DNA of 64,000 nucleotides from a virus (lineage: Duplodnaviria > Heunggongvirae > Uroviricota > Caudoviricetes). The notes below the pieces were generated by a model. That model did not search any database. It was not told the DNA's origin and saw nothing but the letters and a program-made list of their open reading frames with translations. The stretch lies in IMG/VR virus record IMGVR_UViG_3300032030_000019. One strand, 5' to 3'. The stretch's first letter is position 1. Each line of letters starts with the position of its first letter. The translations under genes and the position numbers were made by a program. Shown in pieces: positions 2,432 through 62,996 of the stretch.

Positions 2432-2432
2432 A

Positions 2433-7510: not shown

Positions 7511-7512
7511 CT

Positions 7513-8123: not shown

Positions 8124-8658
8124 GATATTTCTGATCGTCGGTTACATCTCTGACGCCCCATTCAGGTACCTTGAAATTCTTAGCAGCCTCTTCACTAGGA
8201 AATTCCTGTTCACCTGTTATGATTGTTTTTCCATTCGGGAATCGGCGTACAAGGACAACACCCTGATCATTCTCCATTTTGTACACCGTGTTATACGTAA
8301 TCCCTATTAATTGGTCCTTGTGTTCCTGTAAGTAGTGATCAAAGAAAACCTTCGAGACCGTATCAGTCATTTCAAGACGTTTAGTTCCACTTATAGTCTT
8401 CTTTACCAACTTCTTATACGTATGCTTAGGATCTTTCTTACGTATATACTTATCTACCATACGTACTATTTCTCCGCCCACGTTGAAGTAATAGTGTTCT
8501 ACGTAATGTGAAAGTGTGCCATGTTTTTCCACGTCAGCCAAATTTTTACACAAATACGTACGTTCAATTTCCACCTCCTGTCTTTTTACGTTTACGGGTT
8601 TAGAACCCTTATTCTCAAGAAACCTCAATTCTTGTTCTTCTAGATCCAACGCCCCCAT
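8089..8658 (-). CDS. hypothetical protein; possible CYTH/triphosphate-tunnel-like fold
   Basis: E-V-E-I-E-R (ExExK-like) motif near the N-terminus and a size of about 190 aa; weak. Confidence 0.35.
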   Translation of the reverse strand: MGALDLEEQELRFLENKGSKPVNVKRQEVEIERTYLCKNLADVEKHGTLSHYVEHYYFNVGGEIVRMVDKYIRKKDPKHTYKKLVKKTISGTKRLEMTDTVSKVFFDHYLQEHKDQLIGITYNTVYKMENDQGVVLVRRFPNGKTIITGEQEFPSEEAAKNFKVPEWGVRDVTDDQKYRGYQMSIDNFV

Positions 8659-12087: not shown

Positions 12088-12314
12088 ACCTCCGAGTCAA
12101 AGCTAAAGCCCGGATTGTAATGTGAGCGTTGTAGATTCATATGAAAATCGAACGTTTCATTGAACTCCAGGATAAATGACGAGCGGTTTTGATAGAGTAA
12201 GACGTCAATGTAATTACAATAAATGTAATAACAACCAAAGACGCCCTCTCCATCCTCAGACATGCTACGGCACAGATAGGAGTTACCAATTACGTTAGCG
12301 ATCACGTTTGTCAT
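12081..12314 (-). CDS. small protein, NPG tail family (YNPGFSFDSEVW)
   Basis: same tail; GGAGGTG SD and a TGATG overlap with the next gene. Confidence 0.5.
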   Translation of the reverse strand: MTNVIANVIGNSYLCRSMSEDGEGVFGCYYIYCNYIDVLLYQNRSSFILEFNETFDFHMNLQRSHYNPGFSFDSEVW

Positions 12315-27866: not shown

Positions 27867-28988
27867 TTATCCTTTCAAAACCATTCTAGCTTGTTCTGCA
27901 TTTTCAAAGATGCACTCCTTGCCGTTTATGATTATCTTAACTTTATTGTTAGAAGAAGTATTGTTGACTTTTACATCTACATTTACTTCAATCTTTGGTT
28001 CTGACGTTTCCTCAGGTTTAACACGGAACTCGAACCTCTCATCGTCAAAATACTCAGGTTTTATAGTTACCATTTTAATCCCAGGACAAAGATCTCCCCA
28101 TTCATTCGTTGAGCTTCGTCGTATCTGAATAGGCTTGTCCTCCTTGAAATACGCCCATTTAACCTCATAGTTTGGGTCGTAGTAGGCGAATCTATAGTAT
28201 CCTGCGCTACCTTGAAGACAAAAGGGATACACATCGCTCTCTGAGTAGTGTGATAGTGTGCCCATCTCGCTAGGTCCTTTATGATGAATCGCCCTTTGAA
28301 GGGTTTCTATATAATCACCACAAAACACTTTTTTCCCACGCAACACCTCATCCCATTCAAAATGTACGAATTTTGAATTGTATAAGTTCACTTCTTTTCT
28401 CTTTTCGGTGTTGTTCGTTTCAGTCATATTAACCTCCTTTTTTGGTCTCCTAGTTATAGCACAATCAGAATCGACTATTCCTTCCGGTCTAATCTCTAAC
28501 TGTGCGGGTATTGAAATATTTTTCAGGTTAGAACAACCAAAGAATACATGGCTACCAATACTTGTTACGCTATCGGGTATCGTGATACGAGTTAGACTGT
28601 TGCAATACTTGAATGCTAGATCACCTATATTCGTCACACTGTCAGGTATAACCACATTCATCAAACTGTAGCAGTCTCTGAATGCATTATCGCCTATGTT
28701 CATCACGCTGTCAGGCATCGTCACACTCGTCAAGCCAGTGCAGCCATAGAATGCATAGTCACCAACAATTGTTACTCCGTCCTTTATTACGACTGACTCA
28801 ATCTGCTGACACCCGTAGAATAGGAAATCGGGAACCACGCTATTCTTGCCCGTATTTATGACTACTTCCTTGATGTCATAATACCCCACTAGACCATTAT
28901 AAGCTGGTCCACTAACACCTTCGAACGACCAGATTACTAGCCGATCATCGTCTATACAGAAATCGTTCTTTATTCTAAGAATACCCAT
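27867..28988 (-). CDS. BspA-type leucine-rich-repeat protein
   Basis: tandem units of about 23 aa (IPDSVTNIGDLAFKYCNSLTRIT / IPDSVTSIGSHVFFGCSNLKNIS); start set at MGILRIK with AGGAGG 6 nt upstream. Confidence 0.7.
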   Translation of the reverse strand: MGILRIKNDFCIDDDRLVIWSFEGVSGPAYNGLVGYYDIKEVVINTGKNSVVPDFLFYGCQQIESVVIKDGVTIVGDYAFYGCTGLTSVTMPDSVMNIGDNAFRDCYSLMNVVIPDSVTNIGDLAFKYCNSLTRITIPDSVTSIGSHVFFGCSNLKNISIPAQLEIRPEGIVDSDCAITRRPKKEVNMTETNNTEKRKEVNLYNSKFVHFEWDEVLRGKKVFCGDYIETLQRAIHHKGPSEMGTLSHYSESDVYPFCLQGSAGYYRFAYYDPNYEVKWAYFKEDKPIQIRRSSTNEWGDLCPGIKMVTIKPEYFDDERFEFRVKPEETSEPKIEVNVDVKVNNTSSNNKVKIIINGKECIFENAEQARMVLKG

Positions 28989-29030
28989 TTTACGCCTCCT
29001 ATTGCTACGCAACCGTTTCGCTCACGCTCA

Positions 29031-34104: not shown

Positions 34105-35340
34105 TCAACCTCTTGTCCCTTCAGCAAATCTATTTTTTTTAATATGCACTCTTTTCGGAAATGCATTTTCCCCGATTAATACTCCACTGGGTATAGTTAC
34201 ACTCGTCAGTTGAGTACAATCCTCGAATGCATAATCACCAATGCTCATTACACTGTCAGGTATTGTTACACTCGTCAGTCTGCTACAACACAAGAATGCA
34301 CCACTGCCTATGTCTGTCACGCTGTTACCTATTGTTACACTCGTCAGACCATCACAGCCACTGAATGCATAATCACCTATGCTTGTCACGCTGTCAGGTA
34401 TTGTTACACTCGTCAGACCATCACAGCCACTGAATGCATAATCACCTATGCTTGTCACGCTGTCAGGTATTGTTATGCTCGTCAGACCGATACAGCCACT
34501 GAATGCATAATCACCTATGCTTGTCACATTACTCGGTATCGTCACACTCGTCAGGCCGCTGCAGTTATAGAATGCATGGCTGCCTATGCTCGTCACACTG
34601 TCTCCTATCGTCACACTCGTCAGACCATCACAGCCACTGAATGCATAATCACCTATGCTTGTCACACTGTCAGGTATTGTTATACTCGTCAGACTACTAC
34701 AACCGTTGAATGCATGGTTGCTTATACTCGTCACGCTGTCAGGAATAATCAAGTCTGTAACAAGCTTTCCATCCACCTCAAGTTGGTAGGTGAAATTAAA
34801 AGGCCAAGGAGCCCAGTGAATGTGACACCATTGCTCGATAGTCCCCTTATATTTTATTAGGAGGGACTGATTTAACAATGCATTCTCCCCAATATAGCTA
34901 ACAGTATCTGGGATCACGACACTGTCATTTTTCATATATGAGATCAATCCAAAGGGTAGATACACAATCCCTTTCATGAAGACCTTGTATCTTTTTTCCT
35001 CAAACTTGGGGCCTTCATCCTTGTCCCAACCGAGGCTATTTACTTCCTTGACCTCTTGAAGATACTCATCCAGGATCTGGGTATCATTTAAAACATAATC
35101 CTTCCACTCTATTACATTGGAGTATGGAAGTTTGTATCTGTTTTTATAGAGGAGTCCCCAATTATACTCCTCAAGGTTTTGATGTTTTGCCCTGTTCATT
35201 ACAGAGAGAGCAGTGGTTCTGTTAATTGTCTCCATCTTTTGGATCTTGGCTTTTTCTTTGTCAAACTCCTTCATACCCGGCGTCCTCCTTAACAAACACT
35301 TACGTCCGACATAACGCAAGAGAGGTTTTACGGAACCCAT
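34105..35340 (-). CDS. BspA-type leucine-rich-repeat protein with near-identical tandem repeats
   Basis: at least 9 consecutive units of 23 aa (IPDSVTSIGDYAFSGCDGLTSVT) encoded by near-identical 69-bp repeats. Confidence 0.7.
   Translation of the reverse strand: MGSVKPLLRYVGRKCLLRRTPGMKEFDKEKAKIQKMETINRTTALSVMNRAKHQNLEEYNWGLLYKNRYKLPYSNVIEWKDYVLNDTQILDEYLQEVKEVNSLGWDKDEGPKFEEKRYKVFMKGIVYLPFGLISYMKNDSVVIPDTVSYIGENALLNQSLLIKYKGTIEQWCHIHWAPWPFNFTYQLEVDGKLVTDLIIPDSVTSISNHAFNGCSSLTSITIPDSVTSIGDYAFSGCDGLTSVTIGDSVTSIGSHAFYNCSGLTSVTIPSNVTSIGDYAFSGCIGLTSITIPDSVTSIGDYAFSGCDGLTSVTIPDSVTSIGDYAFSGCDGLTSVTIGNSVTDIGSGAFLCCSRLTSVTIPDSVMSIGDYAFEDCTQLTSVTIPSGVLIGENAFPKRVHIKKNRFAEGTRG
34190..34770 (-). repeat. 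69-bp near-identical tandem repeats (coding; LRR units)
   Basis: e.g. ccatcacagccactgaatgcataatcacctatgcttgtcac... recurs almost verbatim at a 69-nt period; this also explains the spurious plus-strand ORF 34210..34860. Confidence 0.8.
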
Positions 35341-39194: not shown

Positions 39195-42100
39195 CTACCC
39201 TGCAAGTAGCTTATTAGCAATATCTACAGGATATATTTTTGATGGATTATCACGTATATGAAGACTCTGTTTATTTTGAGCCTTCTCCTCATCATCCTCC
39301 ATTCCTGGTATTAAATGTTCATCCCATCGCTTTACCTTGTCAAAATACGATGGAATACCCAATGGCTTTGTTGCAGTTTCAATACCACGTACGTGACGAT
39401 TTACCTTAAATTTTACAGTACGTATATACGGACTCAAAAACTCAGGATAATCACAAATATAATGTGGTTTCGCACGTGGCCCACCTGTTGGGTTCTTAAT
39501 GAACTCGCCGATAGGATCCACTAACCCTTTATCAGGATTATCCGTTATCTCATCCTCAAGTATTGTAATATCAGGCTCAGTCAAATATGTAAAGACATAA
39601 TCCACAGAACCTTTTGGACCTGAGATCTTACCTTCCATTGTCTCAACATCAAGAGAATACGACATATGCTCACATGAATTGTACAAAATATCCAAGTCAT
39701 ATTTAAAGTCGATGCCATACTTCTCGAAAATGTACTTGCGGAAGTAGTTGCGATAACATATGTCGGCTTCAAACAAGTCACGTATAGGCAAGTTATTCTG
39801 ATTTGAGTCATGTATAACGCTTTCAGCACTAACGTCAATATCCAACGCACGTATGTTCATAATAGACAATTCAAAGCCCTCGTTCGCAACAACAGACGCA
39901 TTTCCCTGATTACCATAATTAACGGCCGTCGTAAATGCGTCGTCTTTGTCTCCATGTAAACGATCCCCTAAGAACGTTTCAATTTCACCCGTTTGCTGTA
40001 AATAATGAAGTTTGTGCTGACGTAAACGGTCAACTTCCCTCCACGTACCAAACATAGCACGCTTCATCTCTGTCACACGTTCCGTAGTTACACCCGCACG
40101 TGCAGCTAACCCTGCATCTCCTTGCCCATATATCGATGAAATCATACATGTTTTGGCAATCCCTCGATATTTAGCTTTAAAGTCGGGGTCGTTAACGTGA
40201 TCAGGCCACGTAATCTTCGCAAGCTCCATATACGCATCTTTGCCTGAGTTGTATATATCCATAAATACAGGATCATGGGATATATAACAAATTGAACGTG
40301 GCTCCATTTGTGATACGTCGAAATACGTTTTTATACGTCCTGGCTCTACGATAAGGCACTTCATTGTGTCGCTGTGTGGCAAGAACGTATGGTAGCCTGA
40401 CGTACATCGCTTTGTTGCCAACGTATTCATCGCGAACGTTGGCACATACGTATCTTTCGGACCATTATCAGAAAAATAGCCTGAATGTACACCTGGATAA
40501 AAGATCTTATGTTTACCGTTAAGTATGTTTTTCAGGTACGTATTCAGCTCTTTACTTGCTACTGACGCAAAATCCGTAAGAAAGCCAAGTTTTGCAAGAA
40601 GTTGGTACGTATCATCAGGAAGTTCAGTCGTCATATTGTTACGAGGTTCATCAAATAAATACTGAAAATATTCCTCAGCAAAAGTAACCCCGTCGCTAAT
40701 AAACTCCTTTTTCCATACGGCTGGCTCACGTTTCATAATAGACACACGTCCACCTTCTTCGCGTGAGTAGTAACTTCCTATTTCTACTTCAGGCATAAAC
40801 AAGTCTAATGCATCTGACTGGTTCAGTAAGTCTATTTTACTTTCAAAGACGGTTAGTAGTTCACGTATCTTTTCAGGTGTACGTTCGACATTGTTCGCCT
40901 TGATGTATTGCCACGTAGAGTACATAACAAGATAGTTATCCCTATATTCGTGTTTCAACATAGCACCGAAGATCTCAGGAAATTGATCGTTCGAGCTGTA
41001 CTTACATACTTTCTCAAAATACAGCTTATCTCGTCCTTCATAGATTGTACCAACGAACGGGTCCTCTGTTACACGTATATGTTCATCAAATCTTGTAATT
41101 TCTTCAGCACACGCACGTAAACGCAAATAACGATATGCGGATATTTCAGGATGTGTAATGCCGTCAAACTCCTCTGCAACAGCTTTAGGCACAATAGTAG
41201 ATAGATCGAACTGTAAATAGTAATCATCATCTAAATCCCGTAAATCATAAACCTGAGCAAGAGTGGATACCTGTTTCTTGGGTTCAAATATGGTCACCTC
41301 ATTATGCACTTCCTCCAATAACCATCTCAAGTTATTTTCAGGTATGTCTTCCGCAACACCATGAGTCGTTACACCCAAATCTATACTCACTTTCTTAAAA
41401 CGTGAACATAACGTATCATATAACGTAACCGTCACATCTTTCTTGCCCCTCTTCGTTTGCGCCTCAATTTTCGTCCCGTACTTTTTATACCATGCACGTG
41501 CAACATCGATTGCGATCCATGCGTCTTCCATACGTATATACTTTTGTAAAGGCGACCACATATACGTTAAACCTGCGTTCTTAATATACTCTTTTAACGC
41601 AATATAAACGTCAGCCACTATAAATCGATTAAACGACTCCACAAGTTCAGACAAATGTATCATAGTCTGTATAAACTTACCGATAGGTTCAGCTGTCTTT
41701 TTCTTACGTGTATACGAATCAAGCCCCTGTGACATAGCTTCTTCGTCTAAAACAGAAGAAACCTCATCACTTACGTCATATCCGAACATGTCATTCAAGA
41801 ACGTACTCGGAATATTCCAGTCAGGCTTTTTCGGACACAGTCTTCCTAACAGTATCTTTGTGATCTTCATTGGATCAGCTTGGCATACCTCAGGATATTC
41901 GGCTATAATACGTAAAGTCTGTTTAGGTATCTCGATTGTACACCACTTATTCTGCTTCATATACGAACGTAGGAAGATCTTATTCAATAAAATCTCGTAG
42001 TTACTACATATGTTTTGGCAATATTTCGCATACTTTGTGGCTTTCTCAACATCTACCTTGATCCCTGACATTTTTAATTCCATGCCCAGATATTTATTGA

Positions 42101-43319
42101 ACAAGAACACAGGATAACAGTTAGAACCGTAAGCGGGGAATAACTTCTCTGCCAATTTCACACCATAAAAGGCATCATAGCAGCAATATACACCCAGTTT
42201 TTCAGGATCACAAGCATACCAATCAGAATACTCATCCCAATAGTTGCTAAGAAGGTTAAAGAGATGTCCATTGTTATTTTTTACATCCTGTACGTAAAAT
42301 TCGCATGCATCAATATACGTTTGTGGCAATTTCTCTTTCGGATCCAACACCTGTCTTACGTTATCCTCTTGATCTAAACAGAAGTACAACGCGGACTTAA
42401 ATGAAGCAAACGTAGGATGCTGCGCACGTATGGCTTTTATGTATGCCTGTTCAGTACTCAACGTATCATTCCATGATGGTGCATGTAGGTAATACTGTAC
42501 GTTATACTTAAGTGAGTGTTTTTGATCGTCAGCTGTTGTAAGGGCGTACGCATCCTGAATGTAGTAGAAACGTTGGTACATTCTGTACAGAACCATCATT
42601 TCAAACGCACAGTTATACGCCCATACGTTTGCAGCATGCGTATCCATATATTGTTTGAACTTAATCATGAATTGTGACGCAAAGAACATACTGTCAGGTG
42701 TTTGTTTGGACTCATCGTAATCGAAATCCTTACGAAAATCAAAGAAATATGCGGTATCTTTAAGTGATAACGCAAATCCTGAAATCCTAAAATCCTCATC
42801 TTCAGGAAATCCAGCTGTCTCAAAGTCCAATCCTACCCACGTAGTTTTATCGGGCATAAATACTGTCTCAATTATACGTGTGCCTTCCTTCAGCCCAACG
42901 CAAATCGTCTCAGGCAAGAACGTATGTCCACCTTCCACCCCATCAGACAAGAAGTATGTGTATTTTGAATCCACCAATACATCCTCATCTACGGAAGGTT
43001 TGGTTCCAAATACGAGTACGTTCTTGCCTATATGGATTGACGGTAGGGCTGTAAATGAGGCATATGTAAACTTACGTAAACCTATGTGTATTTTTAATGC
43101 CCGATGTAATTCCAATAGTTTATCATATATTTTACGCCCATACGCAAGGAATACGTTATTCTCAGACGTTTGTATTAAATTAAAAAACGTATCCTCATCT
43201 ATCAACTCAATTGTACCCTCAGGAAGAGTTGAATAATGATTTTTAATTCCTCGATGTAAACCTTGTTTATCTTTTACAATATAGCGCATGTTATAATCCT
43301 TTAGAAAAGTTGTGAGCAA
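39195..43319 (-). CDS. family A DNA polymerase with 3'-5' exonuclease domain (1374 aa)
   Basis: Exo I motif GLDFETAG; motif A DVSQMEPR; motif B RGIAKTCMISSIYGQG (R..AK....G..YG); motif C VIHDS. Confidence 0.85.
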   Translation of the reverse strand: MLTTFLKDYNMRYIVKDKQGLHRGIKNHYSTLPEGTIELIDEDTFFNLIQTSENNVFLAYGRKIYDKLLELHRALKIHIGLRKFTYASFTALPSIHIGKNVLVFGTKPSVDEDVLVDSKYTYFLSDGVEGGHTFLPETICVGLKEGTRIIETVFMPDKTTWVGLDFETAGFPEDEDFRISGFALSLKDTAYFFDFRKDFDYDESKQTPDSMFFASQFMIKFKQYMDTHAANVWAYNCAFEMMVLYRMYQRFYYIQDAYALTTADDQKHSLKYNVQYYLHAPSWNDTLSTEQAYIKAIRAQHPTFASFKSALYFCLDQEDNVRQVLDPKEKLPQTYIDACEFYVQDVKNNNGHLFNLLSNYWDEYSDWYACDPEKLGVYCCYDAFYGVKLAEKLFPAYGSNCYPVFLFNKYLGMELKMSGIKVDVEKATKYAKYCQNICSNYEILLNKIFLRSYMKQNKWCTIEIPKQTLRIIAEYPEVCQADPMKITKILLGRLCPKKPDWNIPSTFLNDMFGYDVSDEVSSVLDEEAMSQGLDSYTRKKKTAEPIGKFIQTMIHLSELVESFNRFIVADVYIALKEYIKNAGLTYMWSPLQKYIRMEDAWIAIDVARAWYKKYGTKIEAQTKRGKKDVTVTLYDTLCSRFKKVSIDLGVTTHGVAEDIPENNLRWLLEEVHNEVTIFEPKKQVSTLAQVYDLRDLDDDYYLQFDLSTIVPKAVAEEFDGITHPEISAYRYLRLRACAEEITRFDEHIRVTEDPFVGTIYEGRDKLYFEKVCKYSSNDQFPEIFGAMLKHEYRDNYLVMYSTWQYIKANNVERTPEKIRELLTVFESKIDLLNQSDALDLFMPEVEIGSYYSREEGGRVSIMKREPAVWKKEFISDGVTFAEEYFQYLFDEPRNNMTTELPDDTYQLLAKLGFLTDFASVASKELNTYLKNILNGKHKIFYPGVHSGYFSDNGPKDTYVPTFAMNTLATKRCTSGYHTFLPHSDTMKCLIVEPGRIKTYFDVSQMEPRSICYISHDPVFMDIYNSGKDAYMELAKITWPDHVNDPDFKAKYRGIAKTCMISSIYGQGDAGLAARAGVTTERVTEMKRAMFGTWREVDRLRQHKLHYLQQTGEIETFLGDRLHGDKDDAFTTAVNYGNQGNASVVANEGFELSIMNIRALDIDVSAESVIHDSNQNNLPIRDLFEADICYRNYFRKYIFEKYGIDFKYDLDILYNSCEHMSYSLDVETMEGKISGPKGSVDYVFTYLTEPDITILEDEITDNPDKGLVDPIGEFIKNPTGGPRAKPHYICDYPEFLSPYIRTVKFKVNRHVRGIETATKPLGIPSYFDKVKRWDEHLIPGMEDDEEKAQNKQSLHIRDNPSKIYPVDIANKLLAG

Positions 43320-43837
43320 ATGTCATTATACTCTTGCCATATTTTGGTATTATGTAAGGGCTTACGTAATGCCTCACATATGCCTTTGTAATACCACCCC
43401 TGATCCACTTTACCTCGGTTGAACTTGGTCCAAACTATATCACCTTTCGTGTTAACTTCTTTGAGTAATGAACGTACGTTAGATAATTTATCAGCTAAGC
43501 AAATCATCTGTACGTCATGACTTTCTTTAGGTAATTGTGAGATCGTATGCAATTTACGTTGCTCCCACGTTTTTGTTTTATCTTCAGACTCAGCTTGTAC
43601 TAACTGCAATACGTACGGTCCGAATAAGTTCTTGATCTGTGCTGACGTAGTAGACGTATCCTCAAGTGTGTCATGAAGTAAGCCCGCAATTTGCACCAAC
43701 TCAGGTTCACCATTCTCACGTAATATACGTGCCACCTCAAGTGGGTGCACAATATACGGCTCACCTGTTGACTTACGTTGTTGCCCTTTATGAGCTTCGG
43801 TAGCAAATTTTTCTGCTTTTATATATAAATCTGTCAT
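43301..43837 (-). CDS. RelA/SpoT-type HD-domain (p)ppGpp hydrolase (small alarmone hydrolase)
   Basis: EAHKGQQRKSTGEPYIVHPLEVARIL...IAGLLHDTLEDT, the canonical SpoT HD signature. Confidence 0.75.
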   Translation of the reverse strand: MTDLYIKAEKFATEAHKGQQRKSTGEPYIVHPLEVARILRENGEPELVQIAGLLHDTLEDTSTTSAQIKNLFGPYVLQLVQAESEDKTKTWEQRKLHTISQLPKESHDVQMICLADKLSNVRSLLKEVNTKGDIVWTKFNRGKVDQGWYYKGICEALRKPLHNTKIWQEYNDICSQLF

Positions 43838-43846: not shown

Positions 43847-43880
43847 GAAAAAAGAAAGGGGCTGAATAACTCAACCCCTT
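43847..43880 (-). terminator. rho-independent terminator after the 5'-3' exonuclease gene
   Basis: stem AAGGGG/CCCCTT, then TCTTTTTTCGGGGG. Confidence 0.55.
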
Positions 43881-46170: not shown

Positions 46171-46707
46171 TTAATCTTCCAAGTCCACTACTTCCGTCGA
46201 TGTCTCTTGCGTTTGATTCTCAAGAGGGTGTTTCAGTGGACTTGTCATGAGATCACCCTTTGAAAACAAACAACCAAATACGTAGTCCTCAATTTCCTTA
46301 CGTATTTCATCAGGACAGGCATTAACAAACTCAGCTAAGTCTTTGTGACGTATACTGTACAAAAACATAATGAGTCGTTTAATGTCATTGTTCATTGCCG
46401 TACCGAAGAGACCACGATACGGCATACTATCACGAATGAGACGTTGCTCTGTAAAGTCAACAAACTCGGGACGTATTGTTAAAGTCATATCGAGTTTATG
46501 ATCGTACGGATCAACATTCTCATCCTGTAGCACTTTAAAAATGTAGTACTGATCATTATTGTAGTACTGATAGGCACCATAGTTGTTAAACTCAACGTAT
46601 ATACCTTCAGGTACACGTTTCATGTCATAATATTCAAACGTATACATAGGTGTATTCGTAGCATTTAGTAGCAACATATTGAACTCAAAATCGTTTATTA
46701 ATGACAT
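46171..46707 (-). CDS. hypothetical protein (178 aa)
   Basis: ORF. Confidence 0.45.
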   Translation of the reverse strand: MSLINDFEFNMLLLNATNTPMYTFEYYDMKRVPEGIYVEFNNYGAYQYYNNDQYYIFKVLQDENVDPYDHKLDMTLTIRPEFVDFTEQRLIRDSMPYRGLFGTAMNNDIKRLIMFLYSIRHKDLAEFVNACPDEIRKEIEDYVFGCLFSKGDLMTSPLKHPLENQTQETSTEVVDLED

Positions 46708-47138
46708 TATTTTTGCACTCCAAACTTTCCTATCAAAGTCTCCATATCTAATTTTTGGTCAGCACTTACATCTTCTTTAATACGGTAGAACAATAAATCT
46801 TCCTCACTACCCACCAAAGCACGTTTATATGTTTTGATAGAATACACACGATTATCGTTAAACCCATAATATTGTGACAATGTGTCTATAATGAATTTCA
46901 GACAATTGTCGAGGTCTTTTCGTCCAAGTGAGGTGTGTAAGTAAAAACCTAACTCGAGCGATAATTTCACCTTATCAGGTACTGTAGCCCCCACGTCGAC
47001 TTTACTCATTTGTGAGAATGCGTGCTCACGTATCGCAACACATTCGGGATTCATACATTTCCTACGATGTGCCAATATATACATCGAATTTACTGATGGA
47101 AAGTATTTTACCTTAAATACGCCTTGTACATCATACAT
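46707..47138 (-). CDS. rusA: RusA-family Holliday junction resolvase
   Basis: RKDLDNCLKFIIDTL matches the RusA D-x-D-N-x-x-K-x-x-x-D motif; size about 140 aa. Confidence 0.65.
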   Translation of the reverse strand: MYDVQGVFKVKYFPSVNSMYILAHRRKCMNPECVAIREHAFSQMSKVDVGATVPDKVKLSLELGFYLHTSLGRKDLDNCLKFIIDTLSQYYGFNDNRVYSIKTYKRALVGSEEDLLFYRIKEDVSADQKLDMETLIGKFGVQK

Positions 47139-47167: not shown

Positions 47168-47884
47168 TTATTCCGTTTTGTCAAGTACTTTTTCTTCTTT
47201 CAGTACTTTTTTCTTCTTTTTCGATTTGATTGGAACCTGTTCGTTTTGCAAGGCTCTTTTGTTTTCTTCGATCATTTCCTCGATTGTATCAACTTGCTTT
47301 ATCGGCGATGCAAAAACCTGTTCCGCTTCCTCAACCTTATTTAGAATAGCCTTTCCATCTTTATCAATTCCGCCAAATACTAATTTTTCTGTCTGAACTT
47401 CATTTCCGCCATTCTCAGATGGTATCTGTGTATGCCTATAAGTATCTTCCTCGTAGCGCTCACCCGCCCCCAAAACAGCATTGTTGTCTAAATCCACCAT
47501 ATGAGTACTATAATAAGCTCGTAAACGTGTATCAGCAGCCTTGTCAAGATCACCGTTGTAAGCTTCCTTGTCGTTCTCTAGTGCCTGATTAGTATAAGCT
47601 CGCCCAATACGTATGGAAGCATCTAGATCTTCTTTCTCATCATTATCTTTTGCTGCCTGTGCGTTTTTCTTTTTAGCTATTTTTTCTCGAAAACGTTTTA
47701 CCACAGGCTTAACCTTTGACTCATCTACGGGTGGGAACTCAACCTTACCATACTTCTCAAAGTCATGTCTCTTTTTGTCGAAGATTTTCTCTAGTTTCAG
47801 TTCATTGGTGTCTTTTTTAACCGCAAGTAACATGATAAAAATATAAGCCACTACAATCAAAAAGAAATTAACCATACTCAACAT
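47168..47884 (-). CDS. membrane-anchored Lys/Glu-rich protein
   Basis: N-terminal TM (FFLIVVAYIFIMLLAV), then a charged low-complexity region. Confidence 0.45.
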   Translation of the reverse strand: MLSMVNFFLIVVAYIFIMLLAVKKDTNELKLEKIFDKKRHDFEKYGKVEFPPVDESKVKPVVKRFREKIAKKKNAQAAKDNDEKEDLDASIRIGRAYTNQALENDKEAYNGDLDKAADTRLRAYYSTHMVDLDNNAVLGAGERYEEDTYRHTQIPSENGGNEVQTEKLVFGGIDKDGKAILNKVEEAEQVFASPIKQVDTIEEMIEENKRALQNEQVPIKSKKKKKVLKEEKVLDKTE

Positions 47885-47887: not shown

Positions 47888-48454
47888 TTACTCCTTAGTT
47901 TTTTGTGCATTTGTTATTGCTATTTGAAAAGCTTCCTTGGTTTCAAACAATTCGCTTCCATTCCCATAAAAGACCACGTTATAGCGAAGCATTTCACGTA
48001 CGAGCGACGAACTAACGTACGCTATACTTGGGTCAGACATAATATATAACGTTTGTACGTACCCATTAAGCCTACGATTAATATGTTCGAGATTTTGTTC
48101 ATAACTCAAATCTGACACATCACGTAAGCCACGTATAAGCGCTTCAGCACCTACTTCAGCACAATATTGCATGGTCGTACGATTAGGTGCAAGCGTACGT
48201 ACGAACAACTTTTCCCTATGTGGCATATCCCCTTCTAACGACGCAAAAATAATATCCATGCGAACGTCCGTGCTAAACATAGGTGCTAACTTTCCAGGAT
48301 TAGACGCAACAAGAATATGCACTTCATCAAACACATCCAACGTCATGACTTTACGTATAATCTCCGTATGCCCCTTTGTAAACGGATCAAATGTACCTGG
48401 AAATACCGCTATCTTATTTTTACATTCTCTATCGGTAGACACATCGCTTGGCAT
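47888..48454 (-). CDS. coaD: phosphopantetheine adenylyltransferase (CoaD/PPAT)
   Basis: IAVFPGTFDPFTKGHTEII, LIRGLRDVSDLSYEQNLEHINRRL, SSSLVREM align block by block with bacterial PPAT. Confidence 0.85.
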   Translation of the reverse strand: MPSDVSTDRECKNKIAVFPGTFDPFTKGHTEIIRKVMTLDVFDEVHILVASNPGKLAPMFSTDVRMDIIFASLEGDMPHREKLFVRTLAPNRTTMQYCAEVGAEALIRGLRDVSDLSYEQNLEHINRRLNGYVQTLYIMSDPSIAYVSSSLVREMLRYNVVFYGNGSELFETKEAFQIAITNAQKTKE

Positions 48455-48466
48455 GGTCCCTCCTTG

Positions 48467-48952
48467 TTATTTTTCTTTAGACTGCTTCTCCCAAAACTCA
48501 ATAAGATATGGATACTCGTAGCTAAAATTCGTTTCAAGCCATTTTATAGTATCGAAATCATATTCCCTAAAACTTACTCTGTTTCTATCACGTACGTTTT
48601 CATTACTTAACCCACGTCCAGCCGCAGCACTTGATGCAAAGTTTGACGCACGTTTTCGCACCTCTATGGATGAAACGTCAGTGTTACGTATGGTTTCTTT
48701 AAAAGGTTCGAAACCTAAGTACACACTACGTATCCATCCAAAGTTGGTGCGTACCCATCCATCCGTTTGTAAACCTAACGTCATTACCAACGTATTTTGT
48801 GTTAGAATATGTAGCTTCAACGATTGTACATTTGGTTCGGAATATGTCACGGATTTACGTGGTAACACATACATTTCCTCACATAGGCTTACGTATGCGC
48901 TTATCCATAGTAAAAACGTAGAGATTAATGCCATTTTATATAATCTTTTCAT
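48467..48952 (-). CDS. secreted or membrane-anchored hypothetical protein
   Basis: N-terminal signal-like helix MALISTFLLWISAYVSLC. Confidence 0.45.
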   Translation of the reverse strand: MKRLYKMALISTFLLWISAYVSLCEEMYVLPRKSVTYSEPNVQSLKLHILTQNTLVMTLGLQTDGWVRTNFGWIRSVYLGFEPFKETIRNTDVSSIEVRKRASNFASSAAAGRGLSNENVRDRNRVSFREYDFDTIKWLETNFSYEYPYLIEFWEKQSKEK

Positions 48953-48960: not shown

Positions 48961-50316
48961 CTATTTCGCTTTAAGAAGGGGTATGTTATTTAGATCTACT
49001 TCTTTATTAGAATCTGCACAGCCTGAACCGGGAAGTGTTACGGGGTCAAGACAGTTTTTGAGCCATTCGTAAAGATCGCGACTGATTTCCTCAAATCTCC
49101 CATTCTTGTCCATAAGATAATGTGTGCTAGCCAACATACCACCGCGGTACTTCGGCACATTGATAACCCCAATATGATTCTGTCCACCCTTAAAAGGAGG
49201 GAAGGAAATTGTAATCATATTATCCACAATTTGCTGCTTTCGGCTACTCTCATTACCCGACTCTAGAGGAAGTATTTCTTCACTGTAATAATTGGGTTTA
49301 GGCTGACATGCTACAAAGACCCATTTCCCTGGTCGGTCACTGAGGGCCTTGAGCTGATTGTATGTCGTTTCACCCTTTTGATACATTTCTTCCTCAGAAG
49401 CAAAGTTACTGTCATAATCAGCAATAAACACATCGTACTCATCATAATACCCCTTTGATTTAATAAATGAGATCCAGTTAGTACAAGATATCTGATCAGG
49501 CGTGAAATACTGTATCAAGAGGTTATCAAGCCACTTCATCTCAGGGTCATTCATAGCTTGAGTATATACGGTTCTGAAGGTAGTCGCAACACGCGTCATG
49601 GACATACGATATTGCTGGGCCAAAATACGTGTGACAAAATGGAATTCGTTCATATCCCCGAGAGCAAGATACAAGACTTTTTTGCCCTGTTTACAGAACT
49701 CACAGGCCTCCTGGATTAAGAACAGTGATTTACCAGATCCTGGCTTACCACTTACCATAGTTAATGTACGATCAATGTATCCACCGAGAGGTGAACAGTA
49801 ATTAATCATATTCATGGATGACTTCAATGCATTACCTGTCACTTCCTCTTCAAGCTTCGCAATATCGATCTCAGTAAACTTTGACTCTCTGTATATACGT
49901 TTATCCACGTCTTGTATGTTATCAACGTTAAATCCCTGAATTGCACGTACAAAGTCAATAGGTGAACTGAAGTTTTCACGTTTGCATTTATTTATAGCCT
50001 CATTCGTGATTACGTTAGATAATGCATTACGTACAGCATGCAATTCATCTTCAGTGTAGTTCTGCATCTTCTGAAACGCCTGATCCATAACCTGTATCAT
50101 ATCAGACGTATAAGATAAGCTAATCAAGTCATTCTGAAAAGTGGTCTCAGTGTAATTCCCCTGTGAGATAATATCATATTTATCATCAATTAACTTCAAT
50201 AATTTCTCGAATTCAGTATATCCAAAGTATTTCGACTTCAGATATTCCATATTCGATTTAGCTATTGAAGCTACACTTGGATTAAAACAAGAAATTATCA
50301 AATCTACTTCTTGCAT
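48961..50316 (-). CDS. replicative DNA helicase (DnaB / T4 gp41-like SF4)
   Basis: GGYIDRTLTMVSGKPGSGKSLFLIQEA (H1/Walker A); DVFIADYD (Walker B-like). Confidence 0.7.
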   Translation of the reverse strand: MQEVDLIISCFNPSVASIAKSNMEYLKSKYFGYTEFEKLLKLIDDKYDIISQGNYTETTFQNDLISLSYTSDMIQVMDQAFQKMQNYTEDELHAVRNALSNVITNEAINKCKRENFSSPIDFVRAIQGFNVDNIQDVDKRIYRESKFTEIDIAKLEEEVTGNALKSSMNMINYCSPLGGYIDRTLTMVSGKPGSGKSLFLIQEACEFCKQGKKVLYLALGDMNEFHFVTRILAQQYRMSMTRVATTFRTVYTQAMNDPEMKWLDNLLIQYFTPDQISCTNWISFIKSKGYYDEYDVFIADYDSNFASEEEMYQKGETTYNQLKALSDRPGKWVFVACQPKPNYYSEEILPLESGNESSRKQQIVDNMITISFPPFKGGQNHIGVINVPKYRGGMLASTHYLMDKNGRFEEISRDLYEWLKNCLDPVTLPGSGCADSNKEVDLNNIPLLKAK

Positions 50317-54435: not shown

Positions 54436-54630
54436 TTAAATTTTATATTCTTTTCGGTCCTCGAACTCTTGTGCTCTACCTTTGTTCCAATTTTTAATAG
54501 CCCGATAATACCCAACGATGCGAGAATATACCTCGGTCTCTTGGTCTCTCTTGCCATCAAGTATGTCTTTACGTCGTTGTTCTAGATCGGCTAAGCGATC
54601 TGTAAGTTCTTGTTTACTTGCTACTCGCAT
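54436..54630 (-). CDS. nrdD: glycyl-radical domain of NrdD encoded as a separate, overlapping ORF
   Basis: SRIVGYYRAIKNWNKGRAQEFEDR matches the RxxGYxxxxxxxNxGK glycyl-radical tail of NrdD, but lies in the -1 frame, overlapping the nrdD stop by 10 nt. Confidence 0.6.
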   Translation of the reverse strand: MRVASKQELTDRLADLEQRRKDILDGKRDQETEVYSRIVGYYRAIKNWNKGRAQEFEDRKEYKI

Positions 54631-57600
54631 TTGTTTGTTTCCTCCATTTCTCGTTTCTGAATAGCTTCTTTAACTTCACGAATTTGAGCATCCACTCTTG
54701 CAAGCTCCTCATCCCGACATTTAGGACAAAATTTTTGTTCACCATCCAAATATCCATGTTTGGGGCAAATAGAGAACGTTGGTGAAATCGTTAAGTATGG
54801 AAGTCTGTAATTAGTAAAAATTGTTTTTATAAGTTCAGCACACGCTTTCCAGTTGTGTATCCGTTCGCCTAAGTACGCATGAAACACAGTTCCACCTGTG
54901 TACTTTACTTGAAATTGATCTTGGATATCAAGAGCCTCGAAAATATCATCAGTAAAAGTAGCAGGTAACCAAGTGCTATTGGTATAATACGGATCTCCAT
55001 TATCATTTGCTGTGATAATATCGGGGTAGTTTTTCTTGTCATGTAAAGCAAATCGATACCCAGTACCTTCAGCAGGGGTTGCCTCTAGATTAAACAATAA
55101 ACCAGTCTCTTCTTGAAAATCAGATAACCTTGAATTAATGTAATCCATTAGTTCGTTTGTAAAGGCTTGCCCCCATTCATCAGTAATATCATGCTCGTCA
55201 TTAGTGAAGTTTCGTATACATTCATTGCATCCATTGATACCTATTGTATTAAAGAAGGTGTCATAAGACTGAACATAAACTTTACTGTACGGATAGAATT
55301 GTCCTTCAAGTAACTCTTCAATGGTCTTCCGCTTGATTACTAGAGACTCTTTGGCCATAACCAAGAGACAATCAAGCTCTTTATAGAACCCCTCTTTATC
55401 TCCCTTGAACCTATAGCCAAGTTGTGGTAAATTAATTGTAACAACACCAGTAGAACCAGTTTTTTCAGCAGCTCCAAACAGACCACCACCTCGCTTCATT
55501 AACTCTCTTTTATCGAGTCTGAGTCGGCAGCAATTATGTGTCAAGATATTATTAGCATAGAATGTATGTCCTAACGACTCACTTTGATTATAATCGTCGG
55601 GAGAGTCAACTTCAAGATCATAAACTAATCCATCATAATCAATCAGCTCGATAGATACTATTTCATCTCTATAATTGATGTAACCACGATATGAATCGTC
55701 ATTATTGCTTGGATCGAATACCAAAAGATTGTATCCTGCATTACGAATAACCTGATTCCAAGGCTTCTTTACGTATGGGGAATCCTCAATCTCATCATTA
55801 TAGTAACAATGTGTATCTCCTGAAAAATTAGTCTCTAATTCTATTACTAAATTCTTTGAGGGGATATAGAAATCCGCGATCCCAGTAAAGTTGCCATTAG
55901 AATCATTAATAACAAACTGATGCTTATACTCAAGCCCCAATGCGTCCAACTCTTTTCTGAATTTAAATTCCCAGTCAGAAGCTATGGTTGTGTGCCCATT
56001 AGTTTCTTGAACATGATCCCAATAGCCTTGTGAATGGATTGGGTTATTGGCTTTCCATCGTTCACTAGACGCTTTTCGACATTTTTCGCTAACTGGATGC
56101 CCCATACTAGTTTGTGATATTTTTTTCATGCGTTCACGGTTTTGTTCATCGGTCATGGTACGCATAGGATTGCTATTTCCTTGCCATCTACCAAGTCTTT
56201 TATTTCTATCGGAACACTTTTGTCGATAAAGTTTACCTTTTTCTTCACCGAAACGCTCTTCACATGTTTTACCACGATTCTTGTTATTCCACAACTGAAT
56301 AGTATTTTTCTCATATCTAACAGAGAATTTATCGCCAACTTTTAAGTCTTTTGCTTGACGAATGATCAATGATTTATCATTCTTATTTCTTTCTGCATAG
56401 ATTAAGTGCGGATGATCTGGTGTTGTAATGAGAATTTTACCAGATTGAGTTGTAAACTTGTACATCTTTCCAGAATACTTGATAACTATTTTCCTCTTGA
56501 TCGGATAGTATCCCCAACGTGTGAGAACTTTAATTTCATTCTCATCATAGTTATCGAATATATTCTTAATAGAGTCCTCTTCCCACTTACCATCTGGATT
56601 CAGAATTCTGATAACGGTATCAGGCATTATACACATGCTTCTTATATCACTTGGGCTTAGATCAGAATTGATGAAGTTCTGGAAATAAGGCATACCATAT
56701 TTACATGTTATTTCAAATAGCTTCTTGGCATTTGATGATTCCCAATCGAAATCCTTAGTTATGGAGTAAGTACAGATTGGGTAACTGTACAATCTGCCAT
56801 CTGCATCGCCCTTCTCGAACAAATCAAGAAGAACTTCATTAAACATATCCATCTCTTTCTGACAATCTTTATACTTGAAATCTACTTGTTTTCCACCGAC
56901 CCAACAATATGTTTCTGCTAAATCATTAGGAACAATCCAATCTAGAGTAAAGTTACTGAAGGGTGCTTGACTATTCGCCGATATAAATTCATGTCCATTA
57001 ATGTCTTGAAAGAATACTACGCCATTATCTGTTGTAGGGCACCAAACTTCTCCGTCATAAGGTATTTTCTCGACCTCAACTGGAATATTTATACGCTCAA
57101 TAGATTCAAATTTCGAGGTTAAACCAAACCCCTCATCTACGCTTAATGGAACAGTAAAATTAGCCTCTTCATCTAAGAACTCATATGCTCTGTGAATTTC
57201 TCCGTTACCAGTATATACCCGATGCTCATATGATACTATTTGCTCATAATTACAGTCTTTGTTATATAATTTAATCAAGAACTCTTTATCATTAAGCTTC
57301 CGAGTTATTTTCTTAACTGAGTTAAATTCAACTTTACGAGTCTTAGGATTTACCGTATATACCACATCTCCGATCTTAACTTCAGAACACTGTTTCCAAC
57401 CATCCTGTGTTAAGAGTCTTGTTGAGATCGGTACACACCCCCATCTACTACTACAATTGAGACCAAACAAAAGCGACTGAACACATTGATAAACCTCTTT
57501 GCGAGAAAGGTTATCTATTTTTATAAAAGGAGCCACATAAGTATCAACACTAGAATACGCCATGGCTCCAGAATTTTCGTTTTGTAGTAGGCCATTGTAG

Positions 57601-58199
57601 TTAACTAGCTGATTGAAGAGTGTGCTTAAATGCTTAGCTGGTTTTGATGTTATTTTGCCGGGCACACCACCAATACCTTCCCTGATTAAATCTAGGAAAT
57701 TATGTCCAACGCAATAACATGCCAACATACTTAAGTCATGTATATGAAACTTGCAAGCTCGATGTGCATCGCCTATCTCTTTGGGATATATCTTATTCAA
57801 CCAGTAGTTAGCCGTAACAGCCCCACTATTATTGAGAATCATCCCACCAAGTGAGAAACCCACAGACGCATTCTCCTTAACACGCCAATCACTTTCGTCT
57901 AGATATTTGTCAACCAAGTCTATCGGACGTATGCTACGTAACTGCTCACGATTATACCGATATTTGATGTATGCACGAGCGACGTTAGGATTGTACTTCA
58001 TCAGAACTTCTTCTATCATATCCTGAATCTGTTCTACGTTCATTTTGTCTACGAGCCTATCCTCTAATTCATGAAAAACAAAGTTTCCCATCTCAGGCTC
58101 ATTTGTTGCATGGCAGGCTTTATCGACGGCATCTTGTATTTTCAGACGGCTAAATTCGACTTCTCTACCATCACGTTTAATAACTGTTTTTAATTCCAT
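54621..58199 (-). CDS. nrdD: anaerobic (class III) ribonucleoside-triphosphate reductase NrdD precursor interrupted by two inteins
   Basis: N-terminal ATP cone; NrdD blocks (YSSVDTYVAPF, SQAPFSNFT, CCRLRLD...GGGLFG) and a C-terminal Zn ribbon; exteins total about 670 aa. Confidence 0.9.
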   Translation of the reverse strand: MELKTVIKRDGREVEFSRLKIQDAVDKACHATNEPEMGNFVFHELEDRLVDKMNVEQIQDMIEEVLMKYNPNVARAYIKYRYNREQLRSIRPIDLVDKYLDESDWRVKENASVGFSLGGMILNNSGAVTANYWLNKIYPKEIGDAHRACKFHIHDLSMLACYCVGHNFLDLIREGIGGVPGKITSKPAKHLSTLFNQLVNYNGLLQNENSGAMAYSSVDTYVAPFIKIDNLSRKEVYQCVQSLLFGLNCSSRWGCVPISTRLLTQDGWKQCSEVKIGDVVYTVNPKTRKVEFNSVKKITRKLNDKEFLIKLYNKDCNYEQIVSYEHRVYTGNGEIHRAYEFLDEEANFTVPLSVDEGFGLTSKFESIERINIPVEVEKIPYDGEVWCPTTDNGVVFFQDINGHEFISANSQAPFSNFTLDWIVPNDLAETYCWVGGKQVDFKYKDCQKEMDMFNEVLLDLFEKGDADGRLYSYPICTYSITKDFDWESSNAKKLFEITCKYGMPYFQNFINSDLSPSDIRSMCIMPDTVIRILNPDGKWEEDSIKNIFDNYDENEIKVLTRWGYYPIKRKIVIKYSGKMYKFTTQSGKILITTPDHPHLIYAERNKNDKSLIIRQAKDLKVGDKFSVRYEKNTIQLWNNKNRGKTCEERFGEEKGKLYRQKCSDRNKRLGRWQGNSNPMRTMTDEQNRERMKKISQTSMGHPVSEKCRKASSERWKANNPIHSQGYWDHVQETNGHTTIASDWEFKFRKELDALGLEYKHQFVINDSNGNFTGIADFYIPSKNLVIELETNFSGDTHCYYNDEIEDSPYVKKPWNQVIRNAGYNLLVFDPSNNDDSYRGYINYRDEIVSIELIDYDGLVYDLEVDSPDDYNQSESLGHTFYANNILTHNCCRLRLDKRELMKRGGGLFGAAEKTGSTGVVTINLPQLGYRFKGDKEGFYKELDCLLVMAKESLVIKRKTIEELLEGQFYPYSKVYVQSYDTFFNTIGINGCNECIRNFTNDEHDITDEWGQAFTNELMDYINSRLSDFQEETGLLFNLEATPAEGTGYRFALHDKKNYPDIITANDNGDPYYTNSTWLPATFTDDIFEALDIQDQFQVKYTGGTVFHAYLGERIHNWKACAELIKTIFTNYRLPYLTISPTFSICPKHGYLDGEQKFCPKCRDEELARVDAQIREVKEAIQKREMEETNKCE
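55533..56633 (-). mobile_element. intein 2 (367 aa) in NrdD with embedded Vsr/DUF559-like (PD-(D/E)xK) endonuclease
   Basis: starts CIMPDTVIRIL, block B TTPDHPHL, ends VYDLEV...GHTFYANNILTHN followed by Cys +1 at the CCRLRL active-site region; internal WEFKFRKELDALGLEY...GIADFYIPSKNLVIELE resembles DUF559. Confidence 0.75.
56973..57437 (-). mobile_element. mini-intein 1 (155 aa) in NrdD
   Basis: starts CVPISTRLLT (block A), TxxH-like block B (SYEHRVYT), ends YDGEVW...NGHEFISAN followed by Ser +1; parallels the end of intein 2. Confidence 0.65.
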
Positions 58200-59524: not shown

Positions 59525-60145
59525 TTAAAGAATAAGGCTGTCAGGCCCAAGAACAAGGTCACTCCTAGTCCGATTGCTACTCCAACTATCTTTTTTGTCA
59601 TTTAGGTCTCCTTCTACCCTGTACCATGGTCTTGACGCGATCATGTCAGCGTAATGTAAAATTACTATTTCCTCAGGCAATACATCAGCATTTGTGTCGA
59701 ATTCAGGATTATCAAAGCGCCCCATATGCGACTTAACAATCTCAGAAATAAAATTAACATCACATTTTAAGGTGCTGTCTTTGATTGTAGTTGCGACAAA
59801 AGACAATTCATCAGCCGCGCGTTTAGCATGATCTTTTACAGTCCACTTTGATGATGTGCTGTACTTCCACATATCATGTAGAATAGCTGCCGCGTAGAGA
59901 CAATCCCAATTCAATGATGGTCTAGCCTCTTGAATCGCCGTTAATATCTGTATCACTGCTTTTGTATGCCTCACCAATCCCCCATACCCCAACGCAAACG
60001 GAGGATGGTGTTTTCCTGTACTTGATGCTGGTTTCTCAAAATTGATAGGATTAACATAGTGATCAAGTACAGAGATAATTACGTCTCGAAGTTCTGATTT
60101 CTCAATCCTCTCGAGATCGTCCTTGAAAACTTCTGATCCTCTCAC
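59525..60145 (-). CDS. HD-domain phosphohydrolase
   Basis: KHHP ... H..AV ... AAILHDMWK (H...HD motif). Confidence 0.6.
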   Translation of the reverse strand: MRGSEVFKDDLERIEKSELRDVIISVLDHYVNPINFEKPASSTGKHHPPFALGYGGLVRHTKAVIQILTAIQEARPSLNWDCLYAAAILHDMWKYSTSSKWTVKDHAKRAADELSFVATTIKDSTLKCDVNFISEIVKSHMGRFDNPEFDTNADVLPEEIVILHYADMIASRPWYRVEGDLNDKKDSWSSNRTRSDLVLGPDSLIL

Positions 60146-61954: not shown

Positions 61955-62479
61955 TCAATCCTCTTTCTTTTTCCGTTTACGTTTTTCGACTACGTAATGA
62001 TTAAGGAACATGGCATTGCAAAGAACGTGTGCGATATGTGGAAGACCTGATTCATCATCAAGTCCGTCAGGGTCATCCATGTACCGACACAAATGTCTTA
62101 ATAATGCGCCGATGTATCTGTCTGCGCTTACGCGTGTCCACGTCCAATCACCGTATTTTTCAGCACCTGACGTAAGCACGTCTCCAAGCGACTCATATAA
62201 AGACGTAGGTATAAGTTCCAAACGTCTCTTTCCTGCGTCTGTTTTCACACGTTGATCACGTTTGTTATTCGTATGTCCTTCTTCATGTACGATGTAATTT
62301 TCCGGAGGATTTTCAACCGGATTCTTTAGTTTTTCAAGCCCTTTCCACCACTCACCAACCTTCACTCCCAGTTCATCAGCGGCCCCCTCTATTTTGTCTT
62401 TTGCGTTTTTCAGAACCTCGCCGGTGAACTTAGGAATGTAGTTGGCAGGATTAAGGGTAGAGGTAGTTGTTTGTTCCAC
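61955..62479 (-). CDS. MazG-like / DUF550-type nucleotide pyrophosphohydrolase
   Basis: LELIPTSLYESLGDVLTSGAEKYGDWTW...RYIGALLRHLCRYM..DESGLPHIAHV resembles all-alpha NTP pyrophosphatases in phage dATP/dGTP pyrophosphohydrolase modules. Confidence 0.45.
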   Translation of the reverse strand: MEQTTTSTLNPANYIPKFTGEVLKNAKDKIEGAADELGVKVGEWWKGLEKLKNPVENPPENYIVHEEGHTNNKRDQRVKTDAGKRRLELIPTSLYESLGDVLTSGAEKYGDWTWTRVSADRYIGALLRHLCRYMDDPDGLDDESGLPHIAHVLCNAMFLNHYVVEKRKRKKKED

Positions 62480-62708: not shown

Positions 62709-62996
62709 TTACTCCTCGATAATTCCCAAGATTTCTTTTGCCTCGATGATCCAGTATTTCTCACCCGTCTCATCTTCATATTCCTCGAAAGCTACATTTT
62801 TGTTGTAGTAGATCTTTGAGCCGACTTTTATAGCACTGAATTTATCTTCAATGCCAATGCCCACCGCCGTTACCTCAGCCTCGACAAGTGGTTTATAAGG
62901 TTTCTTAGATAAAACAAACCCTGAAGCTGTCTTATCATCCTCATCTTTCTCAATCGGCTGTTTTACCAATACTCTGTTTCCAAGTGGTTTTAACAT
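62709..62996 (-). CDS. groES: co-chaperonin GroES (T4 gp31-like function)
   Basis: MLKPLGNRVLVKQ...TASGFVL...VTAVG.G...IKVGSKIYY matches GroES block by block. Confidence 0.8.
   Translation of the reverse strand: MLKPLGNRVLVKQPIEKDEDDKTASGFVLSKKPYKPLVEAEVTAVGIGIEDKFSAIKVGSKIYYNKNVAFEEYEDETGEKYWIIEAKEILGIIEE

Follow-up and report, generated by a model that had tools for sequence, protein, structure and literature searches.

The window analysed here is a stretch of 64,000 nucleotides from an uncultured phage (Caudoviricetes; IMGVR_UViG_3300032030_000019) and forms part of the 132,976-bp JGI contig Ga0247609_10000077. All of its genes lie on one strand. Between the genes for a DnaB-like replicative helicase and a RusA-like resolvase, we found an open reading frame (ORF) for a protein resembling phosphopantetheine adenylyltransferase (PPAT), hereafter referred to as CoaD. 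It is flanked by two further genes, x161 upstream and x238 downstream; a 12-nt gap separates the x161 stop codon from the CoaD start, and 3 nt lie between the CoaD stop and the start of x238. Besides the helicase and the resolvase, the genes near CoaD encode a primase, a FEN-type exonuclease, a SpoT-hydrolase-like HD_4 protein and a family-A polymerase of 1374 residues. No promoter-like or terminator-like site of its own was found between CoaD and its neighbours, the sole strong minus-strand terminator nearby being that at 43856-43880. Because no such site sets it apart, CoaD is probably transcribed together with the helicase-to-FEN block, as far as can be read from the sequence. Strong canonical Shine-Dalgarno sites precede two consecutive genes here, that of CoaD (Table 1) and that at 47891-47897 (AAGGAG, minus strand). 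Such sites argue against a host among the Bacteroidota, which use them little, although the cellular matches to CoaD include rumen Prevotella PPATs.

The original prediction, made from the DNA alone, was that this gene encodes a phage PPAT, and the sequence, residue, structural and comparative evidence bears it out. Pfam places CoaD at the superfamily level only (PF01467, E 4.5e-13). The NCBIfam equivalog model for coaD, TIGR01510, matches it with an E value of 9.2e-33 and 113.5 bits against a cutoff of 103.3. A database of 5.8 billion proteins contained four close relatives, at 100, 88, 64 and 50% identity, which we refer to as the clade; all four members score above the TIGR01510 cutoff (108.9 bits for P0003 and 125.6 bits for P0004). 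No protein outside the clade exceeds 41% identity to CoaD. The refuting case named at the outset, a different nucleotidyl acceptor as in a cytidylyltransferase, found no support, as no other specific NCBIfam family exceeded 22 bits. The NadD/NMNAT models reached at most 22 bits (cutoffs 112-315), the archaeal-type PPAT model NF001985 gave 15.3 bits against a cutoff of 104, and the GCT, RibF, CitC (citrate-lyase-ligase) and FAD-synthetase models gave no meaningful score. The one candidate for an informative fusion, P0121 (E 4.8e-53 against the clade profile), was rejected: it consists of two ordinary PPAT domains duplicated in tandem, and its score is therefore a sum over domains.

The predicted structure agrees with the sequence assignment. 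At E values of 0.01 or below, all 34 sequence matches in the PDB are PPATs, the best being the S. aureus enzyme (4NAH, E 6.8e-29). An AlphaFold2 (AF2) monomer model of CoaD, built from a 40-sequence alignment, had a mean predicted local distance difference test score (pLDDT) of 89 and a predicted template-modelling score (pTM) of 0.85. When this model was compared with the PDB by Foldseek, the top 50 structures were all PPATs, with template-modelling (TM) scores to the target of 0.83-0.91 and root-mean-square deviations of ~2 Å. The model thus has the single-domain dinucleotide-binding fold of PPATs, a family with a core of ~160 residues.

To place the catalytic residues, we used the numbering of the E. 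coli CoaD sequence, confirmed against 1B6T, and measured column conservation over 245 other PPAT homologues. According to the alignment, the phage protein shares T10, H18, K42, R88, G89, R91, D95, Y98, E99, N106, S128-S130 and E134 with E. coli PPAT; the equivalents K55, R108, R111, D115, Y118, E119, N126 and S148-S150 lie in columns that are 93-100% conserved. The clade fully keeps 26 of the 32 columns with at least 80% conservation, and retains every column with at least 95%. The statement of the original prediction that every PPAT block is present therefore holds for both the E. coli residues named here and the most conserved columns.

The slot between the helicase and the RusA-like gene that holds CoaD is common to the window, to an ENA scaffold from another study (L003, CoaD 88% identical) and to a second contig, of 103 kb (L015, CoaD 50% identical), and the contigs that share it come from JGI, ENA and Logan assemblies. 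In two relatives at a greater distance, L016 and L017, whose helicases are 57-60% identical, the RusA-like gene comes immediately after the helicase gene, and no CoaD-like sequence was found within 10 kb. The phages with CoaD have a three-gene insertion, x161-CoaD-x238, at this point. CoaD is an accessory gene, gained within this insertion in the CoaD-bearing sub-lineage, as the comparison of the loci indicates. The ratio of non-synonymous to synonymous substitution rates (dN/dS, omega) of CoaD came to 0.21 in the comparison with L003 and to 0.27 in that with the L006 copy of the L015-type gene; the flanking replication genes have values of 0.006-0.09, and CoaD has diverged ~3 times faster than the neighbouring helicase. 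Selection on CoaD is purifying yet relaxed, as expected for an accessory gene.

The two companions of CoaD in the insertion gave no match in Pfam, PHROG or NCBIfam. The large protein database contains seven homologues of x161, four of which carry PF08239 (SH3_3), and the conservation between x238 and its L015 counterpart is confined to the first ~32 residues. We considered x161 and x238 as CoA-pathway partners of CoaD and rejected them: neither matches a family, and x161 is envelope-associated, with no link to the pathway.

Both the replication-module context and the conserved synteny in independent assemblies support a phage-borne CoaD, capsid and terminase genes not being seen in the part of the genome covered. 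The PHROG scan of the genes beyond the window end, a scan that leaves the structural half of the contig outside, gave no structural protein. As is expected of an auxiliary metabolic gene (AMG), CoaD lies in a phage genome, is conserved in relatives, is under purifying selection and is not universal in the lineage. A megablast search with the locus found nothing in 50,697 phage records, and the polymerase is at most 24% identical, by tblastn, to those of isolated phages; the window phage therefore belongs to an uncultured lineage with no cultured relative. The names of the records hint at an origin from samples of the ruminant gut. Among the contig collections, two scans of viral contigs were empty and a third, with the clade alignment, gave L011 only (see below); a metagenome contig scan with the helicase and a genome contig scan with P0277 gave no match.

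Table 1. Positions of CoaD, its functional residues, its neighbours and the other genes named in the text (positions are those of the 64,000-nucleotide window).
Feature	Position	Strand	Evidence or remark
CoaD/PPAT-like gene, 188 residues	47888..48454	minus	ATG-initiated ORF; TIGR01510, PDB, AF2/Foldseek, omega
Shine-Dalgarno sequence AAGGAGG, 4 nt 5′ of the CoaD ATG	48459..48465	minus	direct sequence reading
Nucleotidyltransferase signature PGTFDPFTKGH, residues 19-29, with T21 (E. coli T10) and H29 (E. coli H18)	48368..48400	minus	alignment; columns 98-100% conserved
K55 (E. coli K42), phosphate-binding lysine	48290..48292	minus	alignment; 100% conserved
T93-T94, replacing E. coli L73-M74, pantetheine-arm loop	48173..48178	minus	TT in 4/4 clade members
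Residues 108-119, RGLRDVSDLSYE: equivalents of R88, G89, R91, D95, Y98 and E99	48098..48133	minus	alignment
Residues 148-154, SSSLVRE: equivalents of S128-S130 and E134, ATP phosphate-binding motif	47993..48013	minus	alignment
x161, upstream gene of the insertion, hydrophobic N-terminus	48467..48952	minus	only in CoaD-bearing relatives
x238, downstream gene of the insertion, N-terminal transmembrane-like segment, then K/E-rich region	47168..47884	minus	first ~32 residues conserved in L015; no family match
DnaB-like replicative helicase, upstream edge of the insertion slot	48961..50316	minus	PHROG 19, E 7e-24; 98% identical in L003
RusA-like resolvase, downstream edge of the insertion slot	46707..47138	minus	PHROG 34/11573
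Isochorismatase-family, PncA-like hydrolase	1886-2464	minus	PncA match weak, 35.8 bits
NadD-like adenylyltransferase	2433-3053	minus	TIGR00482, 91.6 bits vs cutoff 112.45
NUDIX	6351-6974		NCBIfam best NudE, 59.6 bits vs cutoff 169
HD_4/SpoT-hydrolase-like	43301-43837	minus	family match
HD	59525-60145		family match
MazG-like dGTP_diPhyd_N	61955-62479		family match
Cpn10/GroES	62709-62996		family match

The clade departs from other PPATs in a number of positions. In the pantetheine-arm pocket, L102 and E134 are kept, and all clade members carry T93/T94 where E. coli has L73/M74; position 73 is leucine in 82% of the 245 other PPATs. Further departures from conserved columns are R24 to K and F96 to L. 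CoaD also has ~12 extra N-terminal residues with a clade-conserved VSTD (xVSTD) motif, and the clade has one insertion of 2 residues, another of 6-11 residues before strand 3, and a remodelled C-terminal helix. These features, together with the distance of the clade from all other proteins and its fast divergence relative to the helicase, would fit a PPAT scaffold that has turned to another acceptor or nucleotide. We consider such a change of function unlikely. All side chains that contact phosphate, ribose or pantetheine in the E. coli enzyme are kept, including those of K42, N106 and E134, and the contacts of L73 and M74 with the ligand consist mainly of backbone interactions and hydrophobic packing. 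Moreover, threonine at position 74 is found in ordinary Bacteroidales PPATs, and the models for other nucleotidyltransferases mentioned above do not recognise the protein.

To see how common such genes are among phages, we surveyed the deposited phage records by tblastn. CoaD-like ORFs were present in 64 of the 50,697 records (~0.1%), all with less than 60% identity, the highest among the matches listed being 41%. Many of the 64 are short contigs without annotation or records of bacterial genomes, whole Salmonella genomes included. Genuine phage CoaDs occur, with the gene annotated, in Caulobacter Bertelyvirus (C1/C2/RB23), Brevundimonas vB_BpoS and Myxococcus Mx1 phages, and also in uncultured huge phages; in Prevotella Lak phages, tblastn gives a CoaD-like ORF in unannotated records. 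In the BFVD, the model had no PPAT-grade match, and the best viral folds were NMNAT/cytidylyltransferase-like, with TM scores of ~0.6 and 8-18% identity. Both coaD and coaE have been listed among virome AMGs, their purpose in lytic infection being stated as not known (PMC11097641). The description of CoaD as not typical phage cargo is therefore right as to its rarity, but too strong if taken to mean novelty: phage CoaD is uncommon but already on record, and the gene in the window is a divergent further case. One apparent precedent, the coaD of PhiMa05/MaAM05 (PMC8093824), is doubtful. It is flanked by secE-nusG-rplK-rplA and tRNA-Trp (L021, MW495066.1, 32439-40840), and because coaD sits there in a canonical bacterial locus, this part of the record looks like bacterial DNA.

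On two phage contigs unrelated to the window phage, CoaD is accompanied by a gene for dephospho-CoA kinase (CoaE), or one like it. The nearest relative outside the clade by profile search, P0122, is encoded on a phage-like contig (L013, ENA STEW19 scaffold; PHROG 22485 and 14336), and a CoaE that passes TIGR00152 (82.1 bits against 65.55) lies 5 kb upstream of this CoaD (744-1247 and 6001-6507). On L011 (IMGVR_UViG_3300010882_000011, 7382-8426), CoaD (134 bits) and the gene for a kinase best matched by CoaE (55.5 bits, below cutoff) overlap by 8 nt, and a neighbouring phage gene matches PHROG 1735 at 8e-203. Judged from their sequences, these pairs would be phage modules for the last two steps of coenzyme A (CoA) synthesis, of which we found no description in the literature searched. 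The pairing of CoaD with CoaE in other phages supports the canonical reaction, with CoA as the end product.

We infer from these data that the gene encodes a catalytically competent PPAT of the bacterial type, which serves CoA synthesis and salvage under phage control; we would put the probability of this at roughly two in three. In this scheme, CoaD would be expressed together with the phage replication genes and convert ATP and 4′-phosphopantetheine to 3′-dephospho-CoA and pyrophosphate. In E. coli, PPAT provides a secondary point of control over CoA synthesis, and CoA inhibits the enzyme by feedback. The phage enzyme would add capacity, under phage control, at this penultimate and regulated step, and the dephospho-CoA kinase of the host would complete the pathway. 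Dependence on the host CoaE is suggested because tblastn with two phage CoaE queries revealed no CoaE in the window, L010 or the relatives, a search that covered 71 kb of the window phage. The likely benefit would be a CoA/acyl-CoA pool upheld during the shutdown of host gene expression. Perturbation of the CoA pathway by a phage has a precedent in Qst of LUZ19, which binds CoaC and shifts the levels of pantothenate and 4-phosphopantothenate (bioRxiv 10.1101/577908).

Several observations weigh against this interpretation. The equivalog margin of CoaD is modest, at ~10 bits. A near-invariant leucine of the pantetheine pocket, L73, has become threonine in the clade, which has also lost the conserved C-terminal P147 (E, G or A instead). 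Selection on CoaD is clearly more relaxed than on its replication neighbours, and the occurrence of related phages without the gene means that any benefit is conditional. The position in a replication module lends a metabolic role no support, and the precomputed annotation of the 64 kb window and 7 kb beyond it contains neither PF01121 nor another CoA-pathway gene.

Another purpose for the enzyme is suggested by analogy with phage pathways that restore a cofactor destroyed by host immunity. The NARP1-3 pathways of phages restore NAD+ depleted by defence (bioRxiv 10.1101/2024.02.11.579819; PMC13464706), and CoaD could likewise rebuild an adenylated cofactor pool. The patchy, accessory distribution of CoaD is typical of anti-defence genes, and the window phage has a NadD-like/isochorismatase pair of its own. 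In Mx1 (L018, OR576727.2, 3998-7628), CoaD overlaps a NadM/NMNAT-type gene annotated as a cytidylyltransferase and lies 1.7 kb from Nampt, the latter two forming a NARP2-like pair. However, our literature search turned up no defence system that depletes CoA or dephospho-CoA, a distance of 45 kb separates CoaD from the NAD genes in the window phage, and the support comes from analogy only. We regard a role of CoaD in counter-defence as quite unlikely.

The same chemistry could also be directed at the 5′ ends of RNAs or primers, with dephospho-CoA as a non-canonical initiating nucleotide or with phosphopantetheine transferred onto 5′-pppA transcripts, to yield CoA-capped phage RNAs. In vitro, and apparently also in vivo, E. 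coli PPAT caps pppA-RNA whose 5′ end has at least four unpaired nucleotides (PMC10761072; PMC11253889). The genes around CoaD are those of a primase, a helicase and a polymerase, not metabolic genes, and the phage has a NudE-like NUDIX hydrolase, a family that includes decapping enzymes for cofactor caps (PMC11253889). On the other hand, equimolar ATP strongly inhibits capping by PPAT (PMC10761072), CoaD has no recognisable RNA-binding extension, the CoaD and CoaE pairs of other phages point to CoA as the product, and gene position in early or middle regions of phages is a weak guide to function. The chances of this purpose appear slimmer still. That CoaD supplies CoA-type 5′ caps for phage transcripts or primers, or acts as the CoA counterpart of NARP against a CoA-directed defence, strikes us on the whole as quite improbable. 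Finally, that CoaD is not a true phage gene, being host contamination, a product of chimeric assembly or a decaying passenger, is barely credible: the bacterial appearance of many GenBank ‘phage’ matches, the MaAM05 locus included, and a structural half of the contig that lies outside the part covered would allow it, but the slot between the helicase and RusA/FEN/PolA recurs in all three assembly sources, the reading frame is uninterrupted at 50-88% identity and has an omega of ~0.2, cellular PPATs are at most 41% identical, and the window has no tRNA and no cellular housekeeping gene. A phage-encoded PPAT for CoA synthesis and salvage is the interpretation with the best support.

The original prediction had grouped CoaD with NadD, PncA, NUDIX, SpoT-type hydrolase, MazG-like and HD proteins and GroES, as a sign of extensive reprogramming of host cofactor and nucleotide pools. 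These companion genes are present at the family level (Table 1), while the NadD-like, PncA-like and NUDIX proteins fall below the NCBIfam equivalog cutoffs. As a summary of gene content, the statement is fair; it goes too far as a demonstrated programme, because the genes lie dispersed across ~60 kb, and a number of them can be assigned only to a family, below those cutoffs. The NadD-like and PncA-like genes overlap by 32 nt (1886-3053, minus) and, from their families, could form a partial Preiss-Handler-type module of NAD salvage; such a pairing is not among the described phage NARP1-3 pathways (PMC13464706).

Other parts of the window contain further genes of interest. An EcoRI-methylase-like gene (13397-14347) overlaps a gene with GmrSD_N/HNH domains (12295-13422, minus), and the two may be a DNA-modification or anti-restriction pair of the phage. 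The part of the window without replication genes also codes for two LRR_5 proteins, of the BspA-like leucine-rich repeat type (27867-29012 and 34105-35340, minus). Two proteins with NusA-type KH domains and a zinc ribbon (3538-4449 and 21100-22125, minus) look paralogous; their precomputed Pfam matches are weak to moderate, and they may serve the phage as RNA-binding proteins or transcription factors.

The replication genes themselves vary among the relatives. The family-A polymerase (39195-43319, minus) is unusually long: the polymerase profiles match only residues ~987-1172, and ~980 N-terminal residues lie outside. The HD_4 gene (RelA/SpoT hydrolase-domain-like) stands alone between FEN and PolA in the window and is also present in L015 (79% identical); in L003, it is absent, and PolA directly follows FEN. 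It is thus another presence/absence accessory gene of the replication module. The anaerobic ribonucleotide reductase NrdD (54621-58199, minus) bears an intein (1192 residues, PF14890), and its homologues in L003 (1315-3792, 825 residues) and L015 (3159-5633, 824 residues) are without one. The helicase of the window is intein-free, at 451 residues, and is longer, at 609-624 residues, in P0271, P0273, P0275 and P0279. The precomputed annotation shows the intein domain PF14890 in P0271 and P0275 only; an insert is also present in P0273 (L015) and P0279 (L017).

Genes for CoA synthesis in phages have been known so far as annotations and as entries in tables of virome AMGs. The locus described here offers a clean test case: a divergent, fully equipped PPAT that three related phages have kept and their cousins lack, with the phages that have both CoaD and CoaE as comparators. 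Should the enzyme prove active and escape feedback by CoA, these phages would bypass a regulatory checkpoint of the host. If it acted instead on RNA 5′ ends or countered a defence, a new area would be opened.

How does this protein compare with known systems? With the bacterial PPATs (E. coli 1B6T/1H1T and S. aureus 4NAH), it shares the single-domain HxGH fold, at TM scores of ~0.9, and the catalytic and ligand residues apart from L73/M74 of the pantetheine-arm pocket; it differs in being only 30-41% identical to them and in being encoded in a phage replication module, outside the cellular coaD context. The transferases of NARP2 and NARP3, of NMNAT or NadR type, belong to the same HxGH superfamily and likewise adenylate a phospho-precursor to restore a dinucleotide cofactor, but they form another substrate family, whose NMNAT/NadD models barely score on CoaD, and the anti-defence role has been demonstrated for NARP, not for CoaD. 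The pairs on L013 and L011 come closest by profile score among relatives outside the clade, also lie on phage contigs and have CoaDs above the equivalog cutoff; they differ in the dephospho-CoA kinase (L013) or translationally coupled CoaE-like kinase (L011) alongside, which has no counterpart in 71 kb of the window phage. Like the window gene, the CoaDs of the deposited large phages are lone CoA-pathway genes among hypothetical genes, and they are 27-33% identical to the window protein. Their genomes are 170-550 kb long, and their hosts are mostly Proteobacteria or Prevotella, whereas the genome of the uncultured window phage is ~133 kb. In Mx1, CoaD clusters with NMNAT and Nampt; in the window, it clusters with the genes of replication.

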